64,000 bases of DNA from a phage: NCBI GenBank assembly GCA_012441205.1, contig GCA_012441205.1_4705.1. One strand, 5' to 3'. Shown here piece after piece: positions 25,512 to 54,589 of the stretch. The first letter of the stretch is position 1, and each line of letters begins with the position of its first letter. The notes beneath the pieces were generated by a model. That model made no database searches and had not been told where the DNA came from. It saw only the letters and a list, made by a program, of their open reading frames with translations. The position numbers and the translations under genes are program-made.

Positions 25512-25654
25512 GGATTTGTGTTGGTCCGTTTCGATACCCATCGTATTTTATGGATTGTCGAATGACGTCATTTTAAGGGACATCCCCGGCCTCCTCCCCA
25601 GGAAAGGTGTGGGGAGGAGTTTTTATCATACATTCTATTAAATCGAGCGCGATT

Positions 25655-27736
25655 ATGTTGGATAGAATCAATCGTTTAATGAACCGAATAGCGGTTAAAA
25701 ATCAGAGTAACAATACCGTGCATATCGGGGGTATCGATGCCTGGCGTCTTTCAGATGACATTCAGCGAATATGGGGTACCTCCCGATTTATGAAACACAT
25801 GTTTCGTAATTTCTCTTCCAGTGGTCTCAGTCTCCACAACTTTTACCTTCCCGATTTCGTTTATATTCTCGAAACGATCATCGAGGCAAAGAATACTCGC
25901 AGTAATAAACGCATGCTGAAACACCTTATTGAGGTACTGCTGCAGGAAACCTGGTTGCAAAATACCACAATCGAGCAACCTGCAATCCTCGATAAAGCAC
26001 GCATGAACAAAATGCTAACGCTCTCCCTGTTCGATTATCAAGATGAGTTTATCGACATCTATAACCGTAACGTACCTAAATATCGACTGAAAGGATACGT
26101 GTGTGCGATGGGTGCGGGTGCCGGTAAAACAATCACCGCGTTGGCTTTAAGCGCCGCAATGAACGTCGACGTATTTGTGGTCTGCTGTCCTAAGAACACC
26201 ATGCGTTCAGCATGGCAATCCGATGTAAACAAAGCCATCGTTGACCCCGCAACAGAAACCGCATTCTGGTCAGATACAATGCCACCGTCACAGCTGCAGA
26301 AAAGCGATAAGTATTATTTTCTGCATTACGAGTCGATGGGTTTATTAAACGATGTAATGATCAAGCATAAACGCACCGCGAAGCGCGTGTTGATCGTGGT
26401 TGATGAAAGCCATAACTTCAACGACAAGAACAGCCAACGTTCCCAACGACTGGTTGATCTCGTACAGACGATGCGTCAGACCATGAATGCGGATGTGCAT
26501 GTCTTGTTTATGTCGGGTACGCCCGTTAAACAGATGGGTTCTGAGATGATCCCCTGTTTAGGTTGTATTGACCCGATGTTCCAAGGACAGGTGGTCGATA
26601 GCTTCAAAGCAATTTACGGTTTAACCAGCAGCCGCGCTAACGATATCCTCAGACATCGTCTTGGGTTCATGATGCATGTTGTACCTAAAGAGGCTTATCG
26701 TAAAACCCGGCCGGAAGTTCAGGACGTTTACGTGAAGCTCCCTAACGGTAGCGATTATACCATCTCGAGTATCCGCGACGACATGGCGATATTCGTACGC
26801 GATCGGGCGAAGTATTACAAGGATAACTGGGGGCATTACAGAAAGATTTTTGATGACGCCTTGGACTACTATCGTAAGACTATTCGTACCGATGGTGAAC
26901 GTAAAGAGCTATCTCGATACGAATCGATTGTTGCTCGTTTCCAGAAAGGTTACGACCCCGTCAGAGACAAAGAAGATGCGATGTTCTGCAACGCGTTTGA
27001 AAAACGTTCTATTATGCCGGTTCTTCCTTCTGATTTAAGGGTTGCTTTCAAAGACGCCAAGAGCGTCATCAAGTACGTTGGGTTGAAAATTCAGGGTGAA
27101 GCGTTGGCGCGTGTTCTAGGTGCAGCCCGCATTCGGTGTCATGTCGACATGGTGGAGTACATCGACTTCGAAGGGTACATCAATAACGCTGAAGCCAAGG
27201 TGTTGATCTTCACGTCGTACGTTCAGGTGGTTGAGCGTGTCGACAACATGCTTCGCGATGCCGGTTTCTTACCGGAACCCATTTACGGGAAGACCAACAA
27301 GAACATCAACCAGATACTTGCTCGCTTACGCGATGATCCTGACAGCGGTCCCGCTATCGCAACATTTGATAGCTTAGCCGAAGGGGTTCCGATGTTGATG
27401 TGTAACGTGGGTCTCTTCTTGAACAACCCATGGCGTTCATCCGATGAAATCCAAGCCATCAGCCGTCTCGATCGTGTAGGGCAAACGCAACCTGTTCGGA
27501 TTTATCGTTTCATGTTAGATACAGGAAGCGAGGGTAACGTTTCTACACGTAGCCACGAAATCATGGAGTTAAGTCGACAGCTTGTTGAAGAAATCACAGG
27601 CGTCAAATACGTGGTGAACAAGCAAGATGCTGTTAACTTGCAGGAAACGTTGGCGATGGAAGGATACGATCAATACGTTACCGTAAACACCACGGAATAC
27701 GATATTAAACCACGACCTGCGTTCTTGGAATGGTGA
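25655..27736 (+). CDS. SNF2-family helicase/ATPase
   Basis: Walker A GAGAGKT, motif II VVDESHNF, motif III FMSGTPV; start set to ATG 25655 (ORF track GTG at 25607 lies inside a hairpin). Confidence 0.7.
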   Translation: MLDRINRLMNRIAVKNQSNNTVHIGGIDAWRLSDDIQRIWGTSRFMKHMFRNFSSSGLSLHNFYLPDFVYILETIIEAKNTRSNKRMLKHLIEVLLQETWLQNTTIEQPAILDKARMNKMLTLSLFDYQDEFIDIYNRNVPKYRLKGYVCAMGAGAGKTITALALSAAMNVDVFVVCCPKNTMRSAWQSDVNKAIVDPATETAFWSDTMPPSQLQKSDKYYFLHYESMGLLNDVMIKHKRTAKRVLIVVDESHNFNDKNSQRSQRLVDLVQTMRQTMNADVHVLFMSGTPVKQMGSEMIPCLGCIDPMFQGQVVDSFKAIYGLTSSRANDILRHRLGFMMHVVPKEAYRKTRPEVQDVYVKLPNGSDYTISSIRDDMAIFVRDRAKYYKDNWGHYRKIFDDALDYYRKTIRTDGERKELSRYESIVARFQKGYDPVRDKEDAMFCNAFEKRSIMPVLPSDLRVAFKDAKSVIKYVGLKIQGEALARVLGAARIRCHVDMVEYIDFEGYINNAEAKVLIFTSYVQVVERVDNMLRDAGFLPEPIYGKTNKNINQILARLRDDPDSGPAIATFDSLAEGVPMLMCNVGLFLNNPWRSSDEIQAISRLDRVGQTQPVRIYRFMLDTGSEGNVSTRSHEIMELSRQLVEEITGVKYVVNKQDAVNLQETLAMEGYDQYVTVNTTEYDIKPRPAFLEW

Positions 27737-27743
27737 TTAAGAA

Positions 27744-27775
27744 GCTCTGCCTGATGTCAGGCAGAGCTTTATGCT
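27744..27775 (+). terminator. rho-independent-type terminator (11-bp perfect stem + TTTATGC)
   Basis: gctctgcctga-tg-tcaggcagagc then tttatgc, directly after the helicase stop. Confidence 0.55.
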
Positions 27776-27836
27776 GTATTTGTTGCAAGATCGTATGACG
27801 TATATGCGTCGTAATTATTAAAATAGGGCAAAATAC

Positions 27837-29291
27837 ATGAAACTCAAACAAAGCTGGAAAGACGAACTTCTCGCGTTAGTAAACAGCAAAAACAGTTTAC
27901 AACTGACATTAGACGATGTAAAATTTGAACTAACGGCACCGGTAAGCGAAGTGCCTGGAACGGTCGTTGTTACAATCAAACCGAACGATAATAGTCGCTA
28001 CTTTAACGAGCAGTCTCTGACCTACATCCGTCGAGACATCGCTAAAAACTTCACCGGGATCCCGTTACGGGTTATCGTTAAGCAAGATACCGCTGTAAGG
28101 GATATCATCAATACGATTGCTGAACGTTACGGATTGGTATTTGACACAGCCGTCGACTTCCTCGAATCCGAGCTGAATAAACAAATTACGTTCGCAGACA
28201 CCGGTATTAAAGACATTACGGTTCCGGTTGCAAACACGTCTTATGTTTGGGCGGGTAATCTTCAGTTCAATATTGCTAACGATACGTTAAGCTTGATTAC
28301 TATCATCAAGAAAACCGATCTTACGAATCTGGTTTATCTGGATGGTGTTGAAGCTGACACATCTGGTTCGTTACTATTAGCAACCGCAGCACTTGTTAAC
28401 GAACACGTAAATGAACCGATGGTTGAAAACGAAGATATCGTTAATGAATTTATTAACGTTCTTAATACTCTAGCCAAATATGGTGACATAACCGGCGATG
28501 AATTAGATGCCGCCTTACAAGCGTACGATGAAGCAGAAAACAGGAATAAAACCACGGTAATAACTCTTGGTGATATCCAGTGTGTTGCAACAGAAAAAGA
28601 CGATTGGGAAATTGGACGTTTACGCGGTCAGATGGTTCTCGCGCTCAAATCCGATAAATACCCGGAGCCCGATAACACGTTCAGGTTGTTTACGAATGGT
28701 GGTGACGTATCGCTAACGTTAAACACAATGAAAGATATAAGTATCGATTGGGGTGATGGGAATAAAGTAACGTTGGATGCTGAAGAAAGATACGCGCACC
28801 ACACATACGCCGACAATAACCAGTACCAAATCGAAATTGTGTCTCGTACGGACCCAGATGTGCTGCGACCAAATTATATTTCTGGGAGTGAGATAACCGA
28901 AGTAATTCACTGGGCTACTACTTCAACAATAGCTCTGAATTTTGTTGGATGCGATAATTTAGCGACTGTTCCAGATGAGATCCCAACTTCGTGGACAACG
29001 TTGGACAGCATGTTTGAAAGTTGTACGAATTTGAATGATCCGTCTATCTCTAACTGGAATACAAGTAACATCACATCAATGAATGGTATGTTCGGCGGAT
29101 GCACTAAATTTAACCAACCTTTAGCTGCCTGGGATGTCAGCTCAGTAACTGACATTGGTGGTATGTTTAACGGATGCAACAGTTTTAACCAAGATTTAAG
29201 TGGGTGGCGATTACCGTCAGGAGTAACCCACGACAATTACGATAGTGGTGCTTTCTCGTGGCAGACGGAACATAAACCGACGTTCCAGTAA
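27837..29291 (+). CDS. DUF285-type repeat protein, possible adhesin or tail-fibre-like
   Basis: C-terminal repeats FESCTNLNDPSISNWNTSNITSMNGMFGGCTKFNQPLAAWDVSSVTDIGGMFNGCNSFNQDLSGW match the DUF285 repeat pattern. Confidence 0.5.
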   Translation: MKLKQSWKDELLALVNSKNSLQLTLDDVKFELTAPVSEVPGTVVVTIKPNDNSRYFNEQSLTYIRRDIAKNFTGIPLRVIVKQDTAVRDIINTIAERYGLVFDTAVDFLESELNKQITFADTGIKDITVPVANTSYVWAGNLQFNIANDTLSLITIIKKTDLTNLVYLDGVEADTSGSLLLATAALVNEHVNEPMVENEDIVNEFINVLNTLAKYGDITGDELDAALQAYDEAENRNKTTVITLGDIQCVATEKDDWEIGRLRGQMVLALKSDKYPEPDNTFRLFTNGGDVSLTLNTMKDISIDWGDGNKVTLDAEERYAHHTYADNNQYQIEIVSRTDPDVLRPNYISGSEITEVIHWATTSTIALNFVGCDNLATVPDEIPTSWTTLDSMFESCTNLNDPSISNWNTSNITSMNGMFGGCTKFNQPLAAWDVSSVTDIGGMFNGCNSFNQDLSGWRLPSGVTHDNYDSGAFSWQTEHKPTFQ

Positions 29292-29312
29292 AAAAAAAAA
29301 TAGTTAGCATAT

Positions 29313-29351
29313 CTTCCTCCCTACCCATAACGGGCGGGGAGGAAGGTTTTA
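29313..29351 (+). terminator. bidirectional terminator hairpin
   Basis: cttcctccc...gggaggaagg followed by TTTTA; preceded by an A-run; sits between convergent genes. Confidence 0.5.
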
Positions 29352-29363
29352 TGGCGTTATGAC

Positions 29364-29702
29364 TTAGAACCAGAGTTCTTTCATGAAGTAGGCTTCCGTA
29401 TCGTAGATAAGCCACCCATCGGGGATTTCTAAAGGATCGTCTTCGGTTAAGGTGAGCATGTGCAGGGCGAACGCACGCTTAATATCTTCCAACAGCTTAT
29501 CATCACCGTAACCTTCGGGTAGTTTACGGTCAGCCAGCTGAGTTTGTTTATAGACATCGCGGAACGCTTCAGGATTATGTTTATCCATCGGGAATTGTTC
29601 AGCAGCCTGAACCATCGAAAGCGTCCAGCTTACAACATTGTAACGCTCACCGTTAATTTCACTGAACTGATCATCGATTAAACAGATTTGTTGTATATTC
29701 AT
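29364..29702 (-). CDS. hypothetical protein
   Basis: 112-aa ORF. Confidence 0.4.
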   Translation of the reverse strand: MNIQQICLIDDQFSEINGERYNVVSWTLSMVQAAEQFPMDKHNPEAFRDVYKQTQLADRKLPEGYGDDKLLEDIKRAFALHMLTLTEDDPLEIPDGWLIYDTEAYFMKELWF

Positions 29703-30592
29703 TCATTTTCTCCATTCTTATCTTGGTCGCAATCACACTCTTCGACGTCTTTCTTACTTAAACGTAAGACACCGAGTGCGGCATGCTTGAGTTCTTGCAA
29801 CGCGCTTTTCAGCTGACCTTCTTCATCGAAATCAAAATACTTCTCGTTGTAGCTTAATGCTGGAATCATATTTACGAGAGGCTCGATGGCAGGCATCAAC
29901 ATTTCGATGACGACCTTAGGATCAACAAAGCGATCGAACCCTTCAGGAAGTTTGCTCGCTACAACCTTATCGTTCTTGATGAAGAATTTGTTCTTGAACA
30001 AATCGTCAAGAATAGCGTTCTCTTCATCCGTACGTTTTGCGTGGGGACGATCGATCATCTGAACGAAAACACCACTCAACGCTTCAGGCAAAGTCGGATT
30101 TTCACGAAGAGAAGTTCCAGCCGGAATTTCAATATCGATCTTTGCCCACTCAACAACCTGGTGATCTCGTGTGTAGATAACGTCTACTTCCCACGCCAGG
30201 CCGTCCGGACTTTCCACGGTGTAACGTGTTTTCGCTTGACCTTCCGGAGCCATACGCTCAATGGCATCAAACATCTCGACTGGAATTTCTACCTCGCTTT
30301 CCGTTGCATCACCTGGACCACGATACACCTTCGTGGTCATGATGTATTTCGGTTCTTCGTTATCGATCTGTATAGCTCGTGCTCGTACTTGACCTTTCAC
30401 ACCACCAACGGCCGTGTTATCAAACAACCATTGATGTTGCACCATATGTTCAATTTTTGATGCTACTTGACGAAGACGTTCAACACCATCCTCAGCCAGT
30501 TTGCCAAAGAAGACCAACTCACGTTCCTGCTGTGTCTCACCACTTAACATCATTAAATTGGCGATTTGTTTCACGCCTCTTACTTTTGACAT
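29699..30592 (-). CDS. hypothetical protein
   Basis: 297-aa ORF. Confidence 0.5.
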   Translation of the reverse strand: MSKVRGVKQIANLMMLSGETQQERELVFFGKLAEDGVERLRQVASKIEHMVQHQWLFDNTAVGGVKGQVRARAIQIDNEEPKYIMTTKVYRGPGDATESEVEIPVEMFDAIERMAPEGQAKTRYTVESPDGLAWEVDVIYTRDHQVVEWAKIDIEIPAGTSLRENPTLPEALSGVFVQMIDRPHAKRTDEENAILDDLFKNKFFIKNDKVVASKLPEGFDRFVDPKVVIEMLMPAIEPLVNMIPALSYNEKYFDFDEEGQLKSALQELKHAALGVLRLSKKDVEECDCDQDKNGENE

Positions 30593-30660
30593 ACATGCTC
30601 CGGTTATAAGGGCCTGCTTCGAGGCCCTTCATTGATTTTTGATTCCACCAAACGCTATCG

Positions 30661-32235
30661 TTACAATTCAAAATCTTCATCGATAACGCGCTGGGTAAGC
30701 ACTTTGTCGCTGAAGAACTCCACCTTGCGCTGATGGTATTTACGATGTGCTTCTATCGAAGTACATACCAGATACCAGAACGTTGGTGTCATTCCTTCAA
30801 ACTTCCCTTTCAGCTGACGTAGCCGTCCCAACACCTGAATGTTACCGGTTCGTGACCCCATCGCTAACGTCATGAACGTCATCACCAAGTCAGGAAGGTC
30901 GATGCCCGTACCTGCCGATTTCACGGTTGTAACGCTAATATCGTTATCCAACAAGACCATGAAATCTTCTTCAGCAGTATAAGGACCAATCTCTAACTCA
31001 GGAATACGTTCACTGAGATAATGCGACAACGACTTACACATATCGACGGTTGCACAATACACCAGCATCTTCATACCTTCCTGATACTGGTTCATGAAAC
31101 CTTTGATTATAACGGTATAGATGAAGTTAAAGTACGCGAGTTTGAGTTGCTTGTTCTTCATGATAGACTGTTCGAATATCGTGTGAGAATAAGAACCCCC
31201 AAAGCCTTTGTATCTGACTTTATCTGTACTGCGTAGTCGATACGTCACGGCATTTACCGCAATGTATTTCTTGTATTCGCATTTCGCATAACGTGCTTCT
31301 TTCGGATACATCAAATACAACATCCGCTCGATGAACGGATCGTCGGACACCGCCGTTGCTGACAGATAGATGATTTCCGGAATATTCGCGTAGCACTTCA
31401 CTTTGAACAAGAAATGCAAAGCTTCGTGACATTCGTCATGGATTAACAACCCAATGCCTGTTTTCTCCCAGAACTCGACTGGATGGAAAACATACGGTGC
31501 GACACAGTTGTTCTTTTCATAATCGGTTATGTATCTCTGAAACATGTTCAGTGAGAATAACGCAATTTTGAAATCCAGCTCACCTTGTTCCACCAACATC
31601 TGGAATTCCAGCATGCTGTAACGAGGAATGTCGGGATGCGGTGGGTCAGATTGGGCTGTACCGCGTATCTCGATAACATCACCTGGTTCCATACCGAAGA
31701 AACTTAGCAACGAGCTGCGCCATCCAGGCATGTATCTCGGTGACAGAATAATGCCCGTCCGTACACCACGTCGGAAAGTGATCTCCTGCGACATGGCTGT
31801 TTTACCACTGCCCGTGCCTGCGGTGTTTAGGCTCATTCTGAAGGGGGTATCCTTACCCCCGTCCATGTACTCCAACCATTCTTGCTGATCTTGACGCCAT
31901 GGAAACTTCCATTTCTTTACGAACTCCACTTCTTTACCTGGTACCGGATCGTGATAGACGATTTCCAACCACTCTTTTCGTATCCCTCGAGAAAAGATAA
32001 AATCCAAAAACGATTTCAACTGTTCACGGAGTAAGTATACCTCGCTATAATCGCTTCTTGCCGCGGCATACGTGTTTATGGTATCGGTAACCATTCTCCG
32101 TGTACGAGGATCGCGTCGTTTCCTCAGATGCAAACAACGGTCTCGAAGGTAATGGCCGATAAGATGGGCAAATCGAAGTCCGTATCCGCTCAGCCTCATG
32201 CCGTGCGAGAAGACGTCGATACGAGCTAACTTCAT
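30661..32235 (-). CDS. SF2 DEAH-box helicase
   Basis: Walker A NTAGTGSGKT, motif II HDECH, motif III SAT, motif V/VI TVKSAGTGIDLP. Confidence 0.7.
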   Translation of the reverse strand: MKLARIDVFSHGMRLSGYGLRFAHLIGHYLRDRCLHLRKRRDPRTRRMVTDTINTYAAARSDYSEVYLLREQLKSFLDFIFSRGIRKEWLEIVYHDPVPGKEVEFVKKWKFPWRQDQQEWLEYMDGGKDTPFRMSLNTAGTGSGKTAMSQEITFRRGVRTGIILSPRYMPGWRSSLLSFFGMEPGDVIEIRGTAQSDPPHPDIPRYSMLEFQMLVEQGELDFKIALFSLNMFQRYITDYEKNNCVAPYVFHPVEFWEKTGIGLLIHDECHEALHFLFKVKCYANIPEIIYLSATAVSDDPFIERMLYLMYPKEARYAKCEYKKYIAVNAVTYRLRSTDKVRYKGFGGSYSHTIFEQSIMKNKQLKLAYFNFIYTVIIKGFMNQYQEGMKMLVYCATVDMCKSLSHYLSERIPELEIGPYTAEEDFMVLLDNDISVTTVKSAGTGIDLPDLVMTFMTLAMGSRTGNIQVLGRLRQLKGKFEGMTPTFWYLVCTSIEAHRKYHQRKVEFFSDKVLTQRVIDEDFEL

Positions 32236-34238
32236 AACGTGATTACATCCTCCGGTTTAGGTTCTTTACGCGGTAAAAGCATGTAGTCGATCGGATGATC
32301 TGGCTTCATGGTTGGGATATAACTGTTCGGGTTTTGGAACGCATCCAGTTGCTCTTGGTGAGCGAACTTCATACTCAAGGAGCGCATGTTCATGTTCTTC
32401 TTGAAGGTACTGAAGTATCGTGTTGTTCCCTGTTTCGGCATGCGATAATCTTTCGTGTGTGGCGAACGAATCATGCTGGCGTAGAGAATAACATCGAGAT
32501 GCGAAAGGTTCATTCGCAGACGCTGGGCACACAGACGATGCCAATAATACAGCACGTTTGCAACTTCTTCCGGCGTTGCTTCGTCTTCCGAAAGGAATCC
32601 GGCACTGAAAGAACCTTTCCCGAATTTGAACTCACGTTCGATTTCTTTTGCGTATTCCATCATGTTTTTGTGGATTAACGGCATCTGGAATAACGTACGT
32701 GAATTGTCCCAATGTTTCAAGTCGAAAATCACAATCCCGTCAGACGTCACTTCCCAGCTATGGCGTTTTAGATAACGGATAAACGCTTTACTCGGTACAA
32801 CAGGACGACCGCAGAAATCGAAATTGACTTTGAGCTTACGATAGCTTTCATCTTTCCTGTCGTAAATCTCCATATCGCAAAGCGTCATGTTAAACAAACG
32901 TTGCGGTATCAGCGAACTAATTTCTTCCGCTTCGGCTACGTCGTACAACATGTTCGCAAGACCTAACTTCATCTTAATCAGCACGTGTTTACCTTTCAGC
33001 TCACGTGCGAGTTTGATGTCGTTCATGTTCTGGCTGTAGCGAAGGATATGTTGATATTCCGGTGGGATTGGTGCTGTGGATACCGTTGACGAACCATCGT
33101 GGTGTTTGGTAGAAAGAATGTTCTGCGTTACCTGTTGCGAACAGGTACGCGCTGCGCCATCGCCGACATTATCGGTTAGTGCGAAGTTATGACTTAATTC
33201 ACCGTAACACGTTGTACATACCCCAGCAGGATCGGGATGATGGCAATAGTTAACGGAGCGCATGCGTACCGTCGTACCAATCAATTCTTTCATGTGTGGT
33301 TGTATCGCTACCAACGAACCGTCATCACGAATAATGAATCGACCATGGAAGCCACGCAGGTCGGTCTCATCACGGATTGGCATCGGGATGGTCTCTTTAC
33401 TACCACAATCACCAGGATGAAGTCGTTGTACAACCGCTGTCGCTATCTGAAGTTCACGACCGAAATATTCAGACTTTTTAATCTGCTCTTTGTTGAACAG
33501 CAACGATTTCGCCGCAGAACGACTTTCTTTCAAGCTGTCGGGAAGAGAGATCAAACCAGCTGCGTACGACCGCATTACTGGATCACGGAATATCTCGGAG
33601 TTAATATCAGTCAAGAATCCACGCATCCCAATACACTGTAGCACCTGCCCAATCGAAACGTGTTCGGTTCTTACCGCACGTGCAATAGGGTTTGCATGTA
33701 ACGTTTTATCGGTGCTCAGTACCTTGGTCAGTTTCTTGTATGCGCTTTCGATACCTTCACGGGTGGGTTCCGCTTCGGCGATGATTTTCTTAACTTCGGG
33801 GTGTACAGTAATCTGATAAAAATCATCCGCGCAAATCGTTGTTACGTATTCCTCCAACGCATACGTAAAGAAGTTATACACATTGTTAAACATATCGAAC
33901 AATGCTTTCCAGAGAACCTCACGATTCTCTTGTGGGTAAGCATACATGCATTGACGATACGCGGCGCTTTGCAACGCAACCGATGAACCCGCTGTGAACT
34001 TGCGTTTATCAACCAGGTTCTCTTTTGTCAGTGGTGTCTCAGGATACATGCGATGCACAGACCAGTGCATGTAACTAAAGAAAATGCGTCGCGCACGTAA
34101 TTCATGAACGCCATCGTCCATCTCGATATATACGCGGTCATTAGGCTGTGCCCACTCGAATACCTCATCAACCGGCCAGTGCATAAGCTCGCGTGCCCTC
34201 ACACGACGTTTCGTGGTGGTCGTCTGTGTTGTAGTCAT
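32232..34238 (-). CDS. multisubunit RNA polymerase beta-prime homologue (C-terminal part)
   Basis: VRMRSVNYCHHPDPAGVCTTCYGE...AARTCSQQVTQNILSTKHHDG parallels E. coli RpoC VRSVVSCDTDFGVCAHCYG...[21 protein letters not shown] (recalled from memory). Confidence 0.6.
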   Translation of the reverse strand: MTTTQTTTTKRRVRARELMHWPVDEVFEWAQPNDRVYIEMDDGVHELRARRIFFSYMHWSVHRMYPETPLTKENLVDKRKFTAGSSVALQSAAYRQCMYAYPQENREVLWKALFDMFNNVYNFFTYALEEYVTTICADDFYQITVHPEVKKIIAEAEPTREGIESAYKKLTKVLSTDKTLHANPIARAVRTEHVSIGQVLQCIGMRGFLTDINSEIFRDPVMRSYAAGLISLPDSLKESRSAAKSLLFNKEQIKKSEYFGRELQIATAVVQRLHPGDCGSKETIPMPIRDETDLRGFHGRFIIRDDGSLVAIQPHMKELIGTTVRMRSVNYCHHPDPAGVCTTCYGELSHNFALTDNVGDGAARTCSQQVTQNILSTKHHDGSSTVSTAPIPPEYQHILRYSQNMNDIKLARELKGKHVLIKMKLGLANMLYDVAEAEEISSLIPQRLFNMTLCDMEIYDRKDESYRKLKVNFDFCGRPVVPSKAFIRYLKRHSWEVTSDGIVIFDLKHWDNSRTLFQMPLIHKNMMEYAKEIEREFKFGKGSFSAGFLSEDEATPEEVANVLYYWHRLCAQRLRMNLSHLDVILYASMIRSPHTKDYRMPKQGTTRYFSTFKKNMNMRSLSMKFAHQEQLDAFQNPNSYIPTMKPDHPIDYMLLPRKEPKPEDVITL

Positions 34239-34383
34239 TATTGCTTTCCGATTTAAATGGTTTTATCATACGGTTTACCAAATCCGTTGGACTTTACTAT
34301 CGTTGTGATAGCATCGGGAATCCCTTCCCTTAGGTTATGTAGGTGTTAATATATCTCCACTGCTGACCTTTATGTCGGCAGCA

Positions 34384-35389: not shown

Positions 35390-35411
35390 TATGTTTTTCC
35401 TCAGGTGAATG

Positions 35412-35870: not shown

Positions 35871-35880
35871 GTAATATGCA

Positions 35881-43432: not shown

Positions 43433-43488
43433 AACAACCTCTTTTCGCGGTTCCCTGTTAAAACGTCTTCTGTGACGTCTACCACAAA

Positions 43489-43505
43489 GGTAATATAAGC
43501 GTGAA
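43489..43505 (-). promoter_or_regulatory. early-promoter-like motif TTCACGCTTATATTACC (minus strand)
   Basis: Copy B of the TATATTAC family; TGACGTC half-palindrome at 43473-43479 between motif and start codon. Confidence 0.45.
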
Positions 43506-43636
43506 TAATTTTGGATTCCGGCTGAGTTATCGCTCAGCATGCAAGGCATCCCGCCGAAGCGAGACACCTTGCACTAACGGAAAATATTCGCGTTACCTTC
43601 TGAATCGAAGACTCAGAATGCGATGCTAAAGCATGA

Positions 43637-47243: not shown

Positions 47244-47631
47244 TTACTTCCTCCTGCCACTTGATAAAATTACCACGCTCGGATCGCAGAACACCACCCA
47301 GATCGTACGATATACCTTTCTCTGTGACAATCCCCCCAATCTGGAGATCAACACGTTCCGTCGTCGGATCGATATACTTGACACGGACTTTCAATTCCAC
47401 GCGATCGTAATAACGCATTAAATAATCATACAACATCCGGTACGTCGCATCTTCCAATTTGGGTGCGCTATACTGCGACGTTGCAATGAGGTACGGTAGT
47501 GAAACGATGGAACCTTGATAGCAATACGACTGGGAATAATTCGATATTGCGAAATTGGTCATTAACCCATCCAGCTTTTTACCCGACGCGGTTAAAAAGC
47601 TCGACAGTCCCGGTAACGGATTCGATGCCAT
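47224..47631 (-). CDS. hypothetical protein
   Basis: 135-aa ORF. Confidence 0.4.
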   Translation of the reverse strand: MASNPLPGLSSFLTASGKKLDGLMTNFAISNYSQSYCYQGSIVSLPYLIATSQYSAPKLEDATYRMLYDYLMRYYDRVELKVRVKYIDPTTERVDLQIGGIVTEKGISYDLGGVLRSERGNFIKWQEEVNEGAPN

Positions 47632-47644
47632 GAGGAACTCCTCT

Positions 47645-48184
47645 TTAAGCGTAATTCATTCCAACCAATCTATCGTAGTTAGGCATATGCCCTAACTCCA
47701 GTTCGACGGGCATGGATACATTGGTGCGTGGTGCGTAAAATGTTCGCGTATGCATATCGATATACCCACAGTCCAAATAAACAATATCGGACAACTCCGC
47801 TGGATGTTTAGGTGCGGGAATCTTTAAGCGATTGTAACACTCAAGCTGCCACCAGGCATGAAAAAAGTTATTGTAAGCGTACGATTTACTGTTAGCAACT
47901 TTAAGTCCGTAGATCACCCATAACGCCGCCATGAAGTTGGTCGCGTTAATTCGCATCGGTTGTTCATTATTGAGCATGTACGTGTAGGTAAACAACGGTG
48001 TGTTACCATCACCGAAACGTCCGACCAAGGTATTGTTTGTGCGTTCGACCTCAAAGGAAAAATGCTGGCTGCTATTGCCATCAAAATGGATCATTCCGTT
48101 CTCCTCAAGCTTTTTCATTTCATAGAGTGGTGGAAATTCGTAGAAAGTTACAAAAATAAAAAAGAATGGGCAGCCCCTCCCCAC
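47645..48184 (-). CDS. hypothetical protein
   Basis: 179-aa ORF. Confidence 0.45.
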   Translation of the reverse strand: MGRGCPFFFIFVTFYEFPPLYEMKKLEENGMIHFDGNSSQHFSFEVERTNNTLVGRFGDGNTPLFTYTYMLNNEQPMRINATNFMAALWVIYGLKVANSKSYAYNNFFHAWWQLECYNRLKIPAPKHPAELSDIVYLDCGYIDMHTRTFYAPRTNVSMPVELELGHMPNYDRLVGMNYA

Positions 48185-48213
48185 CCGAAGGTAGGGAGAG
48201 ACCGCAAATATAC

Positions 48214-48678
48214 TTAAACCAAAGCTGCGATAACGTCGTTAACATTACGGCCTCGCAACTCTGCCGCTAAACGAATAACTTCATCCAGGGAACGGTTTGT
48301 ACGAATCTTGGCCACTTTCCAATTTTCAGGATACTGTTCGAAGTTAAGCAACCAAGTCATTACCTTTGCTTGTTCCATACCGTTGAGTTTGATTGTCGTG
48401 CGCGGATTGGCTTTGAACCACTTCTTGCTCAGCTGCGCCATACGGCGAACAGGGTAAGCGTAAGCGCGAGTCCAGTCTTTGGACAGATTGTCGAGTAATT
48501 CACAGTAGCTGTTGTCGTAGTCTTTGTTGATACGACGTAATAACCAGTTGGCGGTCATCTGATAAAGTTTATCATCTTCACGTAACCGCATACCCGCTAC
48601 TGCTAAATAAATGATAAGACCTGCGCCCAGGATGAGAGACAGGATAAACAGAATTTGGGTTTCTTGTGCTAAAGTCAT
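48214..48678 (-). CDS. hypothetical membrane-anchored protein
   Basis: N-terminal hydrophobic helix ILFILSLILGAGLIIYLAVAG; promoter-like motif about 90 bp upstream. Confidence 0.45.
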   Translation of the reverse strand: MTLAQETQILFILSLILGAGLIIYLAVAGMRLREDDKLYQMTANWLLRRINKDYDNSYCELLDNLSKDWTRAYAYPVRRMAQLSKKWFKANPRTTIKLNGMEQAKVMTWLLNFEQYPENWKVAKIRTNRSLDEVIRLAAELRGRNVNDVIAALV

Positions 48679-48767
48679 TTTACTATCCTCGGATTTCGTT
48701 AGGATTTAATTTCCAATATAAGGGCAATGTGATATGCCTTATACAGTCGATTGATGTTGTACATCAC

Positions 48768-48787
48768 TTAAGTAATATAGCCGTGAA
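48768..48787 (-). promoter_or_regulatory. early-promoter-like motif TTTCACGGCTATATTACTTA (minus strand)
   Basis: Copy C; identical 20-mer to copy A. Confidence 0.45.
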
Positions 48788-48797
48788 AAATGTTGGA

Positions 48798-49634
48798 TTA
48801 ACGTGTTCTCCTATCACGATGCGTATACGACTGAAGACCGATGTCCATATGCGGTAACGTCAGCGTCTGCCAGATCTGTCGTGCGTAGCGATCGAGCGTA
48901 TGATCGTCAGTAACACAATCGACGGGTTCGATGAGGTGGGTCGTATACTGGCTTTTCTCAGAGAAAGGTTCGATGTTAGCTGTATCGCCTAATCCGCTTT
49001 TCACGGTGAAGACAAGACGTGTGACGATCATCGCCTTATGCTGCTGTTCATTATAACGAAGGCTGCGGTATACGGCATAGCTTCCTCCTTTTAAGCTTCG
49101 GGTATAACGAAGGTCGGAGGTCGTCTCGGAAATCTGATACAGCATCCAGTCCAACGTATCACGCCAGTACGCATCATCCACATCAGGAACTGTAATACCA
49201 TACCGCGTAGGTAGCAGTTCTAAAAGCAATTTATAAAGTCCGCGACGCAGACCATGCTCTTCTGTTTCCGATAAACCGTTTCCAACGTAACGTGAAATAC
49301 GTGTACGTAAATACGTACGGATGAACATATTCGCCATCAGTGTTTTCACTCTGCTACTGGTATCCTCAAAGCGATCAACGCTGAAACTCGTTTCAATCAG
49401 CCGTCCATTAAAATACAATGCGGCAACATACATCGCGTTATTGCTATCACGTTCAATGTTTAAACGACCGCAGATATTAGCCGCGTCGTTCATGGTAAAT
49501 TCTAATTTATCGTGTTCGATACGATAGATAATATCCTCTTGGGTTGCCAGGCTCGCAATGCGACGGTAGCCCGGAGAAGTACGTTTTACACTCATGATTG
49601 TCCTCGTTTTCAATTTTAAGATTGCATGCGGCAT
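48798..49634 (-). CDS. hypothetical protein
   Basis: 278-aa ORF. Confidence 0.45.
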   Translation of the reverse strand: MPHAILKLKTRTIMSVKRTSPGYRRIASLATQEDIIYRIEHDKLEFTMNDAANICGRLNIERDSNNAMYVAALYFNGRLIETSFSVDRFEDTSSRVKTLMANMFIRTYLRTRISRYVGNGLSETEEHGLRRGLYKLLLELLPTRYGITVPDVDDAYWRDTLDWMLYQISETTSDLRYTRSLKGGSYAVYRSLRYNEQQHKAMIVTRLVFTVKSGLGDTANIEPFSEKSQYTTHLIEPVDCVTDDHTLDRYARQIWQTLTLPHMDIGLQSYTHRDRRTR

Positions 49635-49661
49635 AAACCCTCCCCGCCTTATGCGGGGAGG
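49631..49661 (-). terminator. GC hairpin + TTTATGC-type terminator
   Basis: gcataaaccctccccgc-cttat-gcggggaggg downstream of 49678..50316. Confidence 0.45.
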
Positions 49662-49677
49662 GCAGCCATTAAATGGA

Positions 49678-50316
49678 TTAACCTAATTTACCACCGGCGA
49701 TATTGGTGAAATCTTCGCCATCAGGAACTTGCAGTAGGATACGTGCCATGTCCCAGTTGGTTAATGTAATTGCTTTATCATCGATACTCAGTTCTGGTAG
49801 GTCGAGTTCATGATCATCAAACTCGTAGGAAATACTCCACGTTTCATCTGTTTTAGGATCGGTTATCAACACACCGTCTGTTACACGCATGTAGTCCGGG
49901 TGCAGTTCATTACTGAACGTGCCGAACGGATCGGTGTAACATTCAGCATACCCCTCGATCTGCTGACGCTGTGCCTTCGTACGTAATTCAGGGCACGCCA
50001 TGATCAGTTGTCGAGATATGCCGTTTGCAGCTCGGAAATCCTCCACGGTGTTACATGGCATAACCACATCGTCATGGAAGATGTTCTCCGATTGTCTCAG
50101 CAAAGTCTTACGGAGTTCAGCATAGTTTATCTGATTGAATGCGTCGAACGTTGCTAACGATTCAGCGTAAAAATGCTTTACGTGTTCGCTTGCGCCGCCG
50201 AGGCTATTCATCAGCTTGTGGCCGTACTCCATAAAGCTTTTATCGAGACCGGAGGACATTTCTCCGAACCTCAGTGCACGATAACTGTCTCGTCCACCTG
50301 TAAATATTTGCGCCAT
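49678..50316 (-). CDS. hypothetical protein (possibly a further RNAP-associated segment)
   Basis: 212-aa ORF starting 15 bp after the stop of the beta-prime exon 3. Confidence 0.4.
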   Translation of the reverse strand: MAQIFTGGRDSYRALRFGEMSSGLDKSFMEYGHKLMNSLGGASEHVKHFYAESLATFDAFNQINYAELRKTLLRQSENIFHDDVVMPCNTVEDFRAANGISRQLIMACPELRTKAQRQQIEGYAECYTDPFGTFSNELHPDYMRVTDGVLITDPKTDETWSISYEFDDHELDLPELSIDDKAITLTNWDMARILLQVPDGEDFTNIAGGKLG

Positions 50317-50331
50317 TACAGGCGTCCTCCT

Positions 50332-50556
50332 TTAGCAATGGTTGTTAGTTGCTTCTATTTCGTCAAGATAAGGTTCTACGTCATCGCCCTCCACGAATTC
50401 GTTGAACCAACAGTCAATAGTGGAAATAACCGGTGACTGGTGTTCACATTTCTTAGATACCTTAAAAGGTACGTTATTATCCATCATACCGAGTTCGGGT
50501 CGAAAACGCCCGAAATGTTTCGCAGTCCAAATGTCTGGGACGATATGGTTGTTCAT
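50332..50556 (-). CDS. RNAP beta-prime N-terminal subunit, exon 3 (joins 52532..51282 + 50931..50917 + 50556..50332)
   Basis: Begins ATG 50554-50556, MNNHIVPDIW...MMDNNVP, aligning with E. coli RpoC QMAVHVPL...MMSTNNILSP immediately after NADFDGD; ORF-track TTG start at 50568 rejected. Confidence 0.6.
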   Translation of the reverse strand: MNNHIVPDIWTAKHFGRFRPELGMMDNNVPFKVSKKCEHQSPVISTIDCWFNEFVEGDDVEPYLDEIEATNNHC

Positions 50557-50916
50557 CAATATCTTCAATACGAATCGCTACTTCGTATCCGCAGCATTAC
50601 CTGCAGCTCCTGGTGTTACCAGGATGTTGAGAGTATATCATGTCCATATTCCAAATGGAACGTAGGACTTCCGCGCTGGATCTCGCTTGAGACCACTTAC
50701 TCGTTGAACGTTCTCCTAAAAGGAGCTTCGCTGCTGATTGGACATTGTTACGTACGGTAGGCGTCCCACTAAAGGGATTTTCATTGAAGCCGCGTACATC
50801 CGTTACCTTGTTTCTACCTTATCGGTTCCTCTTACGAGGCGTAACGGCTTTAGCCTATTCCAGCAATTCACGGAATGCATATTCTCCTTTTCAGGAGATA
50901 AGGCCATGGCTCTGGC
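50557..50916 (-). ncRNA. intron 2 (group I-like, ORF-less, 360 nt), paralogue of intron 1
   Basis: 5' exon ends in U, intron ends in G; conserved blocks and covarying hairpins shared with 50932-51281; separates micro-exon from exon 3. Confidence 0.6.
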
Positions 50917-50931
50917 ATCACCGTCAAAGTC
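50917..50931 (-). CDS. RNAP beta-prime micro-exon encoding catalytic DFDGD
   Basis: Minus-strand gactttgacggtgat = D-F-D-G-D, in frame with flanking exons under the proposed junctions. Confidence 0.65.
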
Positions 50932-51281
50932 CACGTATCTTCAGTATGAATCGCTACTTCATACCCGCAGCATTACCTGCAGCTCCTGGTGTTACCAGGA
51001 CGGAGAGATCATCTCATCACCCACGAAGGGTGTTCCGCGCTACCCTCAGCGAATTCGAGGGACATGATCGTTGAACCTTCCACCGATGATCGATGGCTAG
51101 GCTGCTGATTGGACATTGTGCGTTGGGGTGGCATCCTGGTTCAGGACTGTCATTGAAGCCTCCCAACATCCACTCACTTATTTCCGCCTCATCGGCTCCC
51201 ACAAGGGCAGAGTGGCTTTAGCCCGTCTCAGCAATTCACGGAATTCAAGCTCTTCCTTTCGGAAGGCAGGGCCTCATTTGA
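50932..51281 (-). ncRNA. intron 1 (group I-like, ORF-less, 350 nt)
   Basis: Begins right after codon GCU (Ala of ...GYNA) at 51282; ends in G before the micro-exon; paralogous to intron 2. Confidence 0.6.
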
Positions 51282-52532
51282 AGCGTTGTATCCCTTAAGG
51301 ATCATCACGCTTAACCCGATGGTGTTATCCTGCGGATCGCGTTTAACCTTGGTGATTTCAAGACATTGGTTACTGCTTCGGTCAAGTGATGGGTTTCGAA
51401 CAAAGCCACACACAATCCCATCGAACGGTGTATCAGCAATAAGCTCATCGTGCAGCTCGCTCATCATTGGATGATAATTACGGACATGTTCCGCAACGAA
51501 CGCACGTGCTGCTCTTGGCGAATAACCACGATGGAATAACTTGGATTGGATATGTTCTTTATTGGTTAAAGTAAATGGTGCGTATGGGAAATGCAGATGA
51601 TAATAACGATGGTTTGCTGTTATCGAACTGATTACGGTACGCGTGGTGAATGGATGTAATGTACCTAATATGTTTTTACGTGTGATACCTTTCTTCTTAC
51701 CAATGAACTCATCGAAAATTGCTGCGTGGTATTGCAGTAGCTTCAATTGTACTTTCGCCATCCAGTTTTCTTTCTTTCTGGCGCTCAAAGGTGTTGTTGG
51801 GTGATAGATACTATTCAACGTACCGATAGCATCGATCGCACCTTCCATTTTGCTATCTGCATAACGACCGGTTGGCGTATTCTCGATAACGAACATCATG
51901 GCCGCAGGAAAGCTGATATACTGACTGAAGAACTTATCACGATGGATACGGATGAATTCTCGTAGCGTGTCAACTTTCTCCGTGTTCTTCGGTCCACGTA
52001 ACGTAGGTCCTTTATACAAGATCTCCATGATGCGATCGAAGTTCTGTATAAAGCTATTTACGCCACGTCGTATCCCGAATACATCGAATTGCTGCTCCAG
52101 ATAGTTCTTGAGTTCGATGGGTCGTTTTACATTTGGACGGTAACTGGCATCAATGAGCCACGTCATCGTTTCAAAGCTTTTGATATTCAACTCGCTTGCC
52201 AGCACGAGATGGACCAACGGGTTAATGAACGCATCAATTCCTTCAGGAACACGCGCCCAAACCGTCGAACGAATCTCTTGTTCTGCTGGATAGGTTACAA
52301 CCGTTTTACAGTTCGGACACACCGTACCGAGCAGCTCACCACGATTGTAGAAACCACAACCACATTGTGGTGTGATATCCAACGTATCGCTGGAGTAAAC
52401 ACGGGTGATAAAACTGTTTAATTTCTTCTTCTCTTCGACGACTTTTGTATCGTAATCATTCAACAAAATCGGCGTGAAAGGAAGTTCTGCGAGCTGTCTA
52501 TCGAAACTCACGATATCGAGCATGATGGCCAT
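51282..52532 (-). CDS. RNAP beta-prime N-terminal subunit, exon 1
   Basis: Zinc ribbon CGCGFYNRGELLGTVCPNC; GKKKGITRKNILGTLHPFTTRTV (E. coli [23 protein letters not shown]); RNPSLDRSSNQCLE (NRAPTLHRLGIQAFE); LSVMILKGYNA (LHPLVCAAYNA). The ORF-track tail to 51228 is intron read-through. Confidence 0.7.
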
Positions 52533-52574
52533 GGGGTATCTCCTACAAATGAAAAAGAACGTTAGGACGTATAA

Positions 52575-52598
52575 GGGAGGGAGGTTGCCCTCCCTCCC
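52575..52598 (-). terminator. GC hairpin terminator between 631-aa gene and beta-prime gene
   Basis: gggagggagg-ttgc-cctccctccc. Confidence 0.45.
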
Positions 52599-52624
52599 GT
52601 CAGATTACATCGAACGTTCTTCCA

Positions 52625-54520
52625 TTAGAACAGGTTGAATGCCCCACCCATGTTGTTAACGCCAACATTCGGACGATCGCTACGTGCGTAGATGTTACCG
52701 GAGATGTTACCCAGACCACGAGCACGTGCTGCCATGTTACCACGAACAGCGGTACCTGCCAGATGCTGGATGTTCTCAGGACGGATGGTGAAGCCAGCAT
52801 CAGCAGCGGCCTCGATCAGCGCCTGCAGTGCTAACGGATCGAAGTCGTAACGCATTGCCCAGCCGGTTTGTTCCCAGCTACCAGACAGAACACGATCAAT
52901 GATTTCGTGACGAGCGACAACACGCTGAGACATCGTCATATCGGTACGGTCGAAGCTGTCTTCCCAAGCTTCTACGGTATCCGGGTTAGTGATGTTCATC
53001 ATGTACAGATCGTCCATATCACGAATATCGTGACGGTGACCATCCTGGTGGTTATAATGACCCAGCGGGATACGGTTACCGGTAGCGTAGACCAGTGGTG
53101 CGCCGTACTGATATTTCTTGCTGAAGCAACCCAGGGTAGTATCATCGAAGGCACGGAAGAGTGCTTTGTAACCTTCGGAGATTTCCCGGACTTCACCTTC
53201 AACTTTGCCCGTATAGATCTTCTCAGCCGCCGGGATCATACGCAGCAGCCAGCTGTATTCGCCTTCTTCCGGTACGTCGATAGAAATCAGCAGAGACGGA
53301 TACAGTACCTGTTGCAGGAACTTGTAAATCTGCTCGTTGGTTTGAGTAGACAGATCCAGCGGTGCGGTAACTTCCGGATCCAGTACCATCGCCAGAGCAC
53401 CCGGGTTATGCGGACCAATACCACGAGCAGCGTTGCTGATTAAAGACTGTGCCCACGCCATACCGCTGTTCAGCGTAGCGATGGTGCCAATCAGACCCAA
53501 CACGAAAGTGTTCGGCGTGAACGCATCCAGCTCCAGCGGGTAAGCGCTGGTCATCACGTAACGCGGTTGGTATTGTACAGTCGGCGGTACCGGATAACCG
53601 TTAACCAGAACAGGGCCTTGGTTGAAGGTCGGGTTCTGCGGGCTGTAGGTCAGGTCAATGTAACCGGTGGTTGCGACCAGACGCTGCTGACTATCGTAAT
53701 CGCTCATCGCTTGACGGATGCGGTTAGAGATAGTTACAGTGATGTCAGAACGCACAGGGTTACCAACAATATCGCTGTCCTGCATACCGCTGGTGTTGTA
53801 CTGAACGCTGCTGATTGGCTGATCGCTTGCCATCATGCCCAGGTTGAACTGCGGCAGACCCAGTTTATCGCCGAGACGGATTTCGATCGCGGTTTGGATT
53901 GCGTTATCTGCAGCAGACAGCAGGGTGGTTGCCAGATGCGCAGATTCAGCGGTGATTTCATTGGTCACCACAGCCAGACCAGCGATACGAGCAGTACCAT
54001 TAGACTTACCACCGATAGCTGCATACATTGCCGCCATGACTTCGTTGATGAACGTACCGTTCAGGTTATCAACCCAGGTACGCGGCACCAGAATGTTACC
54101 ATGCGGGCCTTGTTCTTCACGACGCGGCAGCGGAGCCAAACCGGCAACCAGTGGAAGCACATAACCGAAGAAGTGGTTATGGTCACCAACTTTTGCACCG
54201 CTCATAACAACCAGGGTCGGATACGGTACACTGTATTGGTTAGGATCGACGGTCACCATGATGAAGTCGTCTTTGAATCCTTTATCTTCCAGTTCTTTTT
54301 CCATCAGACGACGGAGATTCAGTACCTGCTCGGAGCCAGTATTACGGCTAATACGACGGCTCAGTGTACGGTTGATCGTACGCATCGTATGAGTTACTTT
54401 AGGCTGGCCAGCAAAATCTGCAGCGGTTTCCAGCGCCTCATCAGCACGTTGTGCGGTGCGGGTTTCAGCTGCACGAATTTCTACATTATCGTTACCGTTA
54501 TTACGTACGTCTAAGCCCAT
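52625..54520 (-). CDS. candidate phage-nucleus shell protein (chimallin-like); otherwise abundant early protein of unknown function
   Basis: 631 aa; own TATATTAC promoter-like motif 70 bp upstream and own terminator; immediately upstream of the beta-prime N-terminal gene; no motif-level confirmation. Confidence 0.4.
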   Translation of the reverse strand: MGLDVRNNGNDNVEIRAAETRTAQRADEALETAADFAGQPKVTHTMRTINRTLSRRISRNTGSEQVLNLRRLMEKELEDKGFKDDFIMVTVDPNQYSVPYPTLVVMSGAKVGDHNHFFGYVLPLVAGLAPLPRREEQGPHGNILVPRTWVDNLNGTFINEVMAAMYAAIGGKSNGTARIAGLAVVTNEITAESAHLATTLLSAADNAIQTAIEIRLGDKLGLPQFNLGMMASDQPISSVQYNTSGMQDSDIVGNPVRSDITVTISNRIRQAMSDYDSQQRLVATTGYIDLTYSPQNPTFNQGPVLVNGYPVPPTVQYQPRYVMTSAYPLELDAFTPNTFVLGLIGTIATLNSGMAWAQSLISNAARGIGPHNPGALAMVLDPEVTAPLDLSTQTNEQIYKFLQQVLYPSLLISIDVPEEGEYSWLLRMIPAAEKIYTGKVEGEVREISEGYKALFRAFDDTTLGCFSKKYQYGAPLVYATGNRIPLGHYNHQDGHRHDIRDMDDLYMMNITNPDTVEAWEDSFDRTDMTMSQRVVARHEIIDRVLSGSWEQTGWAMRYDFDPLALQALIEAAADAGFTIRPENIQHLAGTAVRGNMAARARGLGNISGNIYARSDRPNVGVNNMGGAFNLF

Positions 54521-54589
54521 TTGGGATTCCTCTTTTCTTAAACTTTATTAAATGACGTCATTGAATCAGCTTCTACTCGCTCATTCACC

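Follow-up and report, generated by a model that had tools for sequence, protein, structure and literature searches.

A perfect palindrome in the leader of the phage nuclear shell gene chmA and its second copy in a Goslar-like jumbo phage

Introduction

The promoter element TATATTAC is the early promoter of the jumbo phages phiKZ and 201phi2-1, used by the virion RNA polymerase (PMC7058600 table 2; PMC7598289), and in 201phi2-1 the extended early consensus is TTTRARR-BTATATTAC-DWHDGTG (PMC7058600; PMC7598289). In phiKZ, the tetranucleotide TATG is the late-start motif (PMC7598289), and terminators located in 5' untranslated regions (5'UTRs) give abundant short RNAs of ~71 nt (Putzeys et al. 2024, PMC10914365). 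Here we analyze a stretch of phage DNA of 64,000 nt (NCBI GenBank assembly GCA_012441205.1, contig GCA_012441205.1_4705.1; the window, for short), in which the exact 12-bp palindrome AATGACGTCATT is present at 25561-25572 (copy 1) and at 54551-54562 (copy 2). Copy 2 is situated in the chmA leader, chmA being the gene for chimallin, the principal protein of the nuclear shell, whereas copy 1 belongs to a different locus, upstream of a helicase gene.

The window is 95.7-97.5% identical to Escherichia phage Goslar, where it corresponds to approximately 117-181 kb, and the phage is a Goslar-like, nucleus-forming E. coli jumbo phage of the Chimalliviridae. The complete 237-kb Goslar genome (NC_048170.1) served as the reference. 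An earlier, sequence-only reading of the window had pointed out the two exact 12-mers, both in divergent intergenic regions with a promoter-like motif, as well as a TGACGTC core at 43473-43479 and the sequence TGACGTCATT at 61861-61870; all these positions are correct. The same reading considered the repeat unlikely to arise by chance, proposed a genome-wide count of the palindrome against shuffled sequence, and interpreted the 12-mer as the site of a dimeric DNA-binding protein located beside the promoter at both loci.

Results

A palindrome at a shared position in chmA leaders

In a sample of 17 phages, we identified the longest perfect palindrome within the 100 nt preceding the chmA ATG and recorded its position as the palindrome start relative to the ATG (Table 1). 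A loop-less perfect palindrome of 10-18 bp is present in 15 of the 17 leaders, and in 13 of these 15 it starts 38-55 nt before the ATG, the two starts outside this range being those in Eowyn and AgentSmith. When the 100-nt leaders were subjected to mononucleotide shuffling, P values of 0.002-0.04 were obtained for 12 of the 17; combined over nine clades by Fisher's method, the P value is 3e-6, and it is 1e-4 when each clade is represented by its weakest member. As controls we used 24 leaders of the adjacent genes, namely the downstream polymerase-subunit gene and the upstream divergent gene, and found no palindrome longer than 8 bp in any of them.

Table 1. Longest perfect palindromes in chmA leaders
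Phage	Palindrome	Start relative to ATG	Comment
Window (Goslar-like)	AATGACGTCATT	-42	
L011 (sister clade)	TTGTCGACAA	-39	
phiKZ, PS119XW, Psa21	TTCTTGATCAAGAA	-38	
PhiPA3	TACTTGATCAAGTA	-39	counted from upstream in-frame ATG
Phabio	TTAACTTGATCAAGTTAA	-51	
RAY, Proteus phage 10	ACATTAGCTAATGT	-44, -38	
LucasX	TGTTCGCGCGAACA	-50	
RTH11	GTTCGCGCGAAC	-55	
SNUABM48	CAATCGCGATTG	-42	
RP12	GCTTTGCAAAGC	-52	
Eowyn	CCTTATAAGG	-22	
AgentSmith	TAACCGGTTA	-86	
RSL2	TACGCGTA	-46	8 bp only
Noxifer			no palindrome

Within clades, the palindrome sequence is kept across genera, the rest of the leader having diverged: TTCTTGATCAAGAA is common to phiKZ, PS119XW and Psa21, ACATTAGCTAATGT to RAY and Proteus phage 10, and GTTCGCGCGAAC to LucasX and RTH11. 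Between clades the sequence differs, partly via symmetric paired changes, as in the replacement of TTCTTGATCAAGAA by TACTTGATCAAGTA and in the arms TT..AA of phiKZ, TA..TA of PhiPA3 and TTAA..TTAA of Phabio. At orthologous positions the sister clade has the core TGTCGACA, and other phages of the family have unrelated cores (TGATCA, TAGCTA, CGCG and TGCA), so that the conserved property is position and symmetry rather than sequence. In phiKZ, the chmA palindrome, even its 10-bp core, occurs once in 280 kb and is not found upstream of the helicase gene gp203; in IMG/VR, the contigs among the matches listed for the phiKZ 14-mer are apparently unrelated. We found no description of a chmA-leader palindrome in the open-access papers searched.

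The start of chmA annotated in PhiPA3 (NC_028999.1, L167) is probably 78 nt too far downstream (1309 vs 1387). The upstream in-frame ATG is preceded by an AAAGGA Shine-Dalgarno sequence and aligns with the phiKZ start, which puts the palindrome at -39, as in phiKZ.

Close relatives of the window phage, drawn from IMG/VR and public metagenome assemblies (L008-L010, L022-L028), are ~99% identical to it in both intergenic regions and therefore give almost no footprint resolution; the 12-mer of copy 2 is invariant in seven Goslar-like genomes, and the changes observed in the chmA leader (L026, L028) all lie outside it. A sister clade is known from metagenome contigs with 46-47% identity in ChmA and 58-62% in the helicase; it is represented by only two lineages per locus, sampled through chmA contigs at one locus and helicase contigs at the other. 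At the same leader position these lineages carry different palindromes, TTGTCGACAA in L011 and AATGTCGACAAT in L017, with the promoter kept and with a hairpin in the corresponding place that differs in sequence from that of the window. The core TGACGTCA of Goslar and the core TGTCGACA of the sister clade are related by a symmetric pair of changes. In the window, the copy 2 dyad extends to 20 bp with one mismatch. A search of the protein database for further ChmA relatives yielded three clusters, to which IMG/VR, the metagenome contig collection and GTDB genomes added none.

Given the leader position shared across the family, the empty control leaders, the conservation within clades and the symmetric changes, copy 2 is very probably a selected cis element specific to chmA.

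Read along the minus strand, the chmA leader consists of the early promoter, a 5'-terminal hairpin, the palindrome, 16 A/T-rich nt and the ribosome-binding site ahead of the ATG (coordinates in Table 2). Because the published promoter motif is centered near -10, the palindrome would occupy about +26 to +37 of the early transcript. The predicted energy of the 12-mer as an RNA hairpin is 0.0 kcal/mol, and that of the palindromes of the family ranges from 0 to -3 kcal/mol; in the predicted minimum free energy (MFE) structure of the Goslar leader, the 12-mer is unpaired. Thus, the stable stem-loop of an RNA hairpin element is not found for the 12-mer. The change between Goslar and the sister clade affects the pair next to the center (A5/T8 to T5/A8), which would fall in a hairpin loop. 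Since monomer hairpins are marginal and the change in the central pair is not constrained by a loop, recognition of duplex DNA or formation of an intermolecular RNA duplex is favored. A search of Rfam found no family match for the copy 2 RNA or for the copy 1 site.

How unusual is the repeat?

In the Goslar genome, AATGACGTCATT is found only at two places, both orthologous to the window sites, and for this pre-specified word none of the 100 shuffles matches this outcome, in agreement with the claim that the repeat is unlikely by chance. However, the appropriate null is the recurrence of a 12-bp palindrome of whatever sequence, which is seen in 18 of 300 window shuffles (6%) and in 59 of 100 genome-size shuffles (59%), so that the repeat alone is suggestive but not compelling. 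Goslar contains 88 twelve-bp palindromes, 13 of them intergenic, with intergenic sequence accounting for 7% of the genome; the chance that two of these 13 are identical is ~78/4096 = 0.02. We found no degenerate family of AATGACGTCATT sites in Goslar: there is one site with one mismatch, in a coding region, and 18 with two mismatches, 2 of them intergenic. The 8-bp core TGACGTCA occurs 5 times in the window, including at 61861.

Neither of the two partial copies belongs to the phenomenon, because the TGACGTC at 43473 forms an arm of a hairpin in a 5' leader and the sequence at 61861 is a stop/start overlap at a coding junction; both were accordingly rejected, the former as a copy of the palindrome and the latter as a regulatory copy. 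The 32-aa open reading frame (ORF) at this junction (61771-61869, minus strand) is unannotated in Goslar, is preceded by a GAGGGAG Shine-Dalgarno sequence, and has a stop that overlaps the start of the next gene, an arrangement that, to judge from the sequence, looks like translational coupling.

The helicase locus carries the palindrome in the Goslar clade only

The divergent genes on either side of copy 1 are an HD-domain gene (minus strand) and the SNF2 helicase gene (plus strand); the copy is outside the transcript of the HD-domain operon, given its location upstream of the early promoter of that operon (Table 2). The left half of copy 1 is part of a conserved asymmetric block with the consensus ATTTTATGG-N2-3-TGTCGAATGA(C/T), also written ATTTTATGG-N2-3-TGTCGAATGAY. 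Three relatives (L018, L020 and L021) keep this left half only (AATGAC or AATGAT), with AATGACCCCAAC and AATGATCCCTTA in place of the Goslar right half, and the TGWCGWCA palindrome was not found in the helicase 5' region of the sister clade. The hairpin and T-run that follow the block are kept in L018 and L020 with a different sequence.

The block is unique in the Goslar genome and was not found upstream of helicase relatives of 40% identity or less, and we therefore rejected it as a repeated promoter class. A pattern scan of IMG/VR for the block recovered, among jumbo phages, only two Goslar-type contigs, the remaining matches being unrelated. Some 20 IMG/VR contigs of 30-50 kb (L111-L162), which represent an unrelated phage group, share TTATGGTATTGTCGAATGA within a conserved region of ~100 nt; their match to the site 1 block apparently arose by chance. 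A mini-ORF at site 1 (ATG 25550) was also rejected, since a 1-nt difference in spacer length breaks its frame in relatives. A scan of site 1 for sigma-70 promoters and simple terminators gave no match, the loop of the hairpin being longer than the limit of the scanner. The arrangement suggests that a short leader RNA of the helicase gene may begin in the block, with TATG as its putative start site.

The helicase homolog of the metagenome relative L021 (5482-8616, protein P0015) is 1044 aa long and contains a LAGLIDADG_3 (intein-type) domain, an intein insertion that is absent in the helicase of the window phage.

Early promoters and leader hairpins

The element TATATTAC is present on the minus strand of the window at 25495, 43490, 48772 and 54593. 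All four copies conform to the extended consensus (TTTCACGGCTATATTACyTnnGTG) and stand ahead of minus-strand operons, including that of chmA; in Goslar there are ~12 extended-consensus sites, every one on the minus strand. By this match, the elements belong to the known phiKZ-type early promoter family. In most early leaders marked by TATATTAC, the GTG of the promoter is followed directly by a hairpin whose sequence varies from leader to leader (43461-43481 and 48750-48766 in the window; also in Goslar). These hairpins at the 5' ends of early transcripts are probably stabilizers.

Excess of palindromes in other leaders

Perfect palindromes of at least 12 bp are about three-fold enriched in the intergenic regions of Goslar (13 vs 4.2 expected; 0 of 1000 shuffles reach 13). 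Their positions in NC_048170.1 include 45685, 60909, 65117, 79480, 81250, 189480 and 202818, among others, and most begin 14-42 nt before a start codon, for example ACTTATATAAGT in the leader of the major head protein gene (-35), an 18-mer in that of gp067 (-29) and a 16-mer in that of gp058. The gp058 leader sequence CACATTAGCTAATGTG (Goslar 65117-65132) contains the 14-bp chmA palindrome of Erwinia phage RAY and Proteus phage 10, which thus stands before a different gene in a different genus. Goslar as a whole has 31 palindromes of 14 bp vs 14.5 expected, and phiKZ has 132 of at least 12 bp vs ~68 expected from length alone. There is, then, a general excess of palindromes in the phiKZ and Goslar genomes. 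The terminators of phiKZ are themselves loop-less perfect palindromes, GCCTCCCCTAGGGGAGGC (29350, 77866 and 84958). With the major head protein gene among the genes concerned, the enrichment points to a leader feature of wider occurrence in these phages.

Gene neighborhoods

The features of the two loci and of the sites compared with them are collected in Table 2. The intergenic region of copy 2 separates chmA (minus strand) from a gp245 homolog (plus strand). A TATG(T) at 54690-54700 (plus strand), 5' of the gp245 homolog and present also in L011 of the sister clade, is a possible late-type start of that gene. Two adjacent sub-threshold matches to group I introns are found on the minus strand at 50609-50970 and 50985-51292 (30 bits, E ~1e-5, gathering score 50). 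The interval that holds them adjoins the polymerase-subunit gene and is ~1.1 kb shorter than its counterpart in Goslar, whose annotation shows one intron together with an HNH endonuclease gene; the endonuclease ORF seems to be missing from the window phage.

Table 2. Features of the window
Feature	Coordinates	Strand	Comment
HD-domain gene operon early promoter TTTCACGGCTATATTACTTACGTG	25488..25511	-	kept in L018, L020
Conserved asymmetric block ATTTTATGG-N2-TGTCGAATGAC	25545..25566	+	contains TATG (25549-25552); kept in relatives of 58-62% helicase identity
Palindrome copy 1 AATGACGTCATT	25561..25572	.	starts 94 nt before helicase ATG; ~60 bp upstream of HD-domain early promoter
Terminator-like hairpin (CCTCCTCCCC...GGGGAGGAG) + T-run	25590..25624	+	C-rich/G-rich, folds strongly; annotated terminator in Goslar
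SNF2/DEAD-like helicase gene (Goslar gp160 homolog)	25655..27736	+	ATG at 25655
5' leader hairpin AGACGUC-ACAGAA-GACGUUU	43461..43481	-	after early promoter 43483-43506; holds "third" TGACGTC 43473-43479
chmA (chimallin, major nuclear shell protein), 631 aa	52625..54520	-	98.7% identity to Goslar gp246 ("nuclear shell protein"); Pfam PF25677 Chimallin
chmA ribosome-binding site AAGAGG	54529..54534	-	read from sequence
Palindrome copy 2 AATGACGTCATT	54551..54562	.	starts 42 nt before chmA ATG, right after 5' hairpin
5'-terminal leader hairpin GAAUGAGC-GAGUAGAA-GCUGAUUC	54563..54586	-	predicted in MFE and centroid structures
chmA early promoter TTTCAGGGTTATATTACCTAGGTG	54586..54609	-	core TATATTAC at 54593-54600; matches published consensus
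TGACGTCATT at gene junction	61861..61870	-	TGA stop of gp236 homolog overlaps ATG of 32-aa ORF

Discussion

We favor the interpretation of the palindrome as a chmA-specific dyad control element that acts on DNA, as the site of a symmetric dimeric phage factor, and assign to this statement as a whole a probability of about 0.4. Under this model, copy 2 would be the Goslar-clade version of a gene-specific cis-regulatory dyad present in most nucleus-forming jumbo phages, placed in the transcribed leader between the 5' hairpin that follows the virion-polymerase early promoter (TATATTAC) and the ribosome-binding site. The dyad would be bound as double-stranded DNA by a symmetric (dimeric), sequence-specific phage factor which, positioned at about +26 to +37, could obstruct transcription of the early gene with the highest expression or shift its timing, possibly at the switch from the virion to the non-virion polymerase. 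Copy 1 would reside inside a different conserved element, with which a putative short leader RNA or attenuator of the helicase would begin (TATG start, block and terminator hairpin). Only the left half of copy 1 would be ancestral, its completion to a palindrome in the Goslar clade reflecting either recruitment to the same factor or coincidence. The window encodes a 115-aa protein (4025-4372, minus strand; Goslar gp119) with a Myb-like domain and a second helix-turn-helix (HTH) domain, both above the Pfam cut-offs. This protein and two window proteins with sub-threshold HTH matches are candidate binders; the HTH-type candidates include the product of 2056-2670 (Goslar gp115).

For the proposal of the sequence-only reading that the 12-mer is a dimeric protein site, the chmA copy thus speaks in favor, as a selected dyad at the same leader position family-wide, with none in control leaders, with symmetric double substitutions and with a weak RNA hairpin, whereas copy 1 does not. 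The dyad symmetry expected of an operator is present, and it is kept in the orthologous sites at chmA but not at site 1. Neither a regulon nor a consistent promoter offset was found: Goslar has two sites at different positions and no degenerate copies, and phiKZ has one copy. Several further observations weigh against a DNA-level operator. Some ten different perfect palindromes occur in other Goslar gene leaders, and because one sequence-specific protein cannot read all of them, a structure- or RNA-based mechanism is hinted at. In phiKZ, the terminators function as RNA hairpins and yet are perfect palindromes, so that a perfect center is no proof of recognition at the DNA level, and the chmA palindrome is itself transcribed, which makes an RNA role possible. 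The leader of Noxifer lacks a palindrome and that of RSL2 has one of 8 bp only, the binding protein is putative, and the second copy, at 25561, may be lineage-specific and coincidental.

That the identity of the two copies is coincidental, the lineage-specific 3' flank of the site 1 block having happened to complete the same 12-mer, is a possibility we take seriously without preferring it, and it is compatible with either mechanism, DNA- or RNA-level, for copy 2. Repeated 12-bp palindromes are common in the shuffles, site 1 of the relatives shows neither the right half nor a TGWCGWCA, the phiKZ palindrome is single and degenerate copies are missing from Goslar, and the offsets from the early promoters differ (about +26 to +37 downstream at chmA vs ~60 bp upstream at the HD-domain gene). 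Against mere coincidence, identity among the 13 intergenic palindromes has a chance of only ~0.02, the match continues for one more base, the 13th, when each copy is read in the sense direction of its downstream gene, and both intergenic regions are ~99% conserved in Goslar-like phages compared to 95.7-97.5% in coding sequence. If the identity is not coincidental, the helicase/HD-domain locus, or its short RNA, would have been recruited to the same factor in the Goslar clade. In any case, the view that both copies are a shared site beside the promoter does not hold up, given the different offsets, the left half only in the sister clade and the single palindrome of phiKZ.

We rank the DNA operator first, a role at the RNA level second and a start region of the non-virion polymerase third. 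An element of the chmA mRNA leader, either the site of an RNA-binding protein (a translational operator, or one that affects stability or export) or a partner in intermolecular pairing, is a tenable but doubtful alternative. The two copies are each part of a (putative) 5' leader, have the same orientation to the downstream gene and share the 13th and 15th base (AATGACGTCATTT-N-A); the putative ~78-nt helicase-leader RNA of Goslar-like phages would carry the same 12-13 nt in the sense orientation and, the sequence being palindromic, could pair without mismatch with the chmA leader at a point ~20 nt upstream of the ribosome-binding site. The homodimer duplex has a predicted energy of -14.7 kcal/mol, the ChmC protein of PhiPA3 binds near the 5' end of chmA mRNA, the architecture of site 1 matches that of the phiKZ 5'UTR-derived short RNAs (PMC10914365), and the many different leader palindromes of Goslar and the palindromic terminators of phiKZ fit an RNA role as well. 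However, monomer hairpins are marginal (0 to -3 kcal/mol), a symmetric change at the innermost variable positions (A5/T8 to T5/A8), which is a loop position, is not explained by a hairpin, the helicase block and the chmA palindrome of the sister clade share 6-7 complementary nt, approximately the chance level, and phiKZ has no second copy. Prediction of a duplex between the short RNA and chmA returned mostly long spurious duplexes.

It is improbable that the palindrome indicates or belongs to a second chmA start used by the non-virion polymerase (a middle start), with the leader palindromes as elements of initiation regions. In phiKZ, gp54 (chmA) has an early primary start and a secondary start with a middle-promoter motif (PMC8244752), and the Goslar leader palindromes begin 14-42 nt before ATGs, near the typical phiKZ 5'UTR of 31-40 nt (PMC8244752). 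Yet neither the middle motif (TACT at -22) nor the late motif (TATG), as published, is palindromic or present at 54551-54562, and perfect dyad symmetry is not expected of promoters. Recognition by a known factor on the strength of sequence alone has next to nothing to recommend it once the family is considered. The core TGACGTCA is that of the eukaryotic cAMP-response element (CRE), a target of bZIP proteins, and the met box (AGACGTCT) of the host MetJ type contains GACGTC too. However, unrelated palindromes with TGATCA, TAGCTA, CGCG and TGCA cores occupy the same place in other phages of the family, and because TGACGTCA is not kept at orthologous sites, we rejected the chmA palindrome as a CRE. 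The access of a host factor is doubtful, the phage DNA being enclosed in a vesicle and then in a protein shell with selective import, and bZIP proteins are not known as a family of bacteria or phages.

Of the proteins that a nucleus-forming phage must make, ChmA comes first and is the most abundant, and an element is found at the same leader position in at least 7 sampled clades, among phages of Escherichia, Pseudomonas, Erwinia, Proteus, Xanthomonas and Ralstonia. The leader palindrome accordingly offers a concrete, mutable handle on the timing and limiting of ChmA synthesis and a bait for its regulator. Going further, one may tentatively picture a control element dedicated to the shell gene that co-evolves, by symmetric substitutions, with a dimeric factor that is probably core-encoded and that in Goslar-like phages acts also at the helicase/HD-domain locus, although we consider this fuller version rather unlikely. 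If true, such a factor would set the amount and timing of shell protein as the early infection vesicle gives way to the phage nucleus.

Among described systems, site 1 resembles T102/PHIKZ221 of phiKZ, the source of a 71-nt RNA (PMC10914365), in having a conserved 5' block, ~40 nt, and a hairpin with a T-run before the helicase ATG; unlike the phiKZ terminator motif, its hairpin has a longer loop, and its start at TATG is putative. The phiKZ-type early promoter explains only the "promoter-like motif" of the sequence-only reading, as the palindrome lies outside the consensus and accompanies 1-2 of the ~12 early promoters of Goslar. Phage translational operators include those of T4 gene 32, gene 43 and regA and the coat-protein hairpin of MS2. 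Like these, the chmA dyad is a short conserved element just 5' of the ribosome-binding site in a phage gene expressed at a very high level, but they are stable hairpins or pseudoknots with defined loops, whereas the monomer hairpin of the chmA dyad is predicted to be unstable and its symmetry runs through the center. With the eukaryotic CRE (TGACGTCA, bound by bZIP dimers), the Goslar site has an identical 8-bp core only, the orthologous sites of related phages having unrelated cores. Perfect palindromes downstream of promoters serve as operators of dimeric repressors in the trp, PurR/LacI-type and MetJ met-box systems. Unlike those operators, the chmA dyad is present as one site per genome (two in Goslar), with no regulon or autoregulated repressor gene, and on phage DNA that is transcribed by multisubunit phage polymerases inside a vesicle or nucleus. 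Like them, it is an even-length dyad (10-18 bp) that stands between the promoter and the ribosome-binding site; its sequence is kept within clades and changes through symmetric substitutions in pairs.

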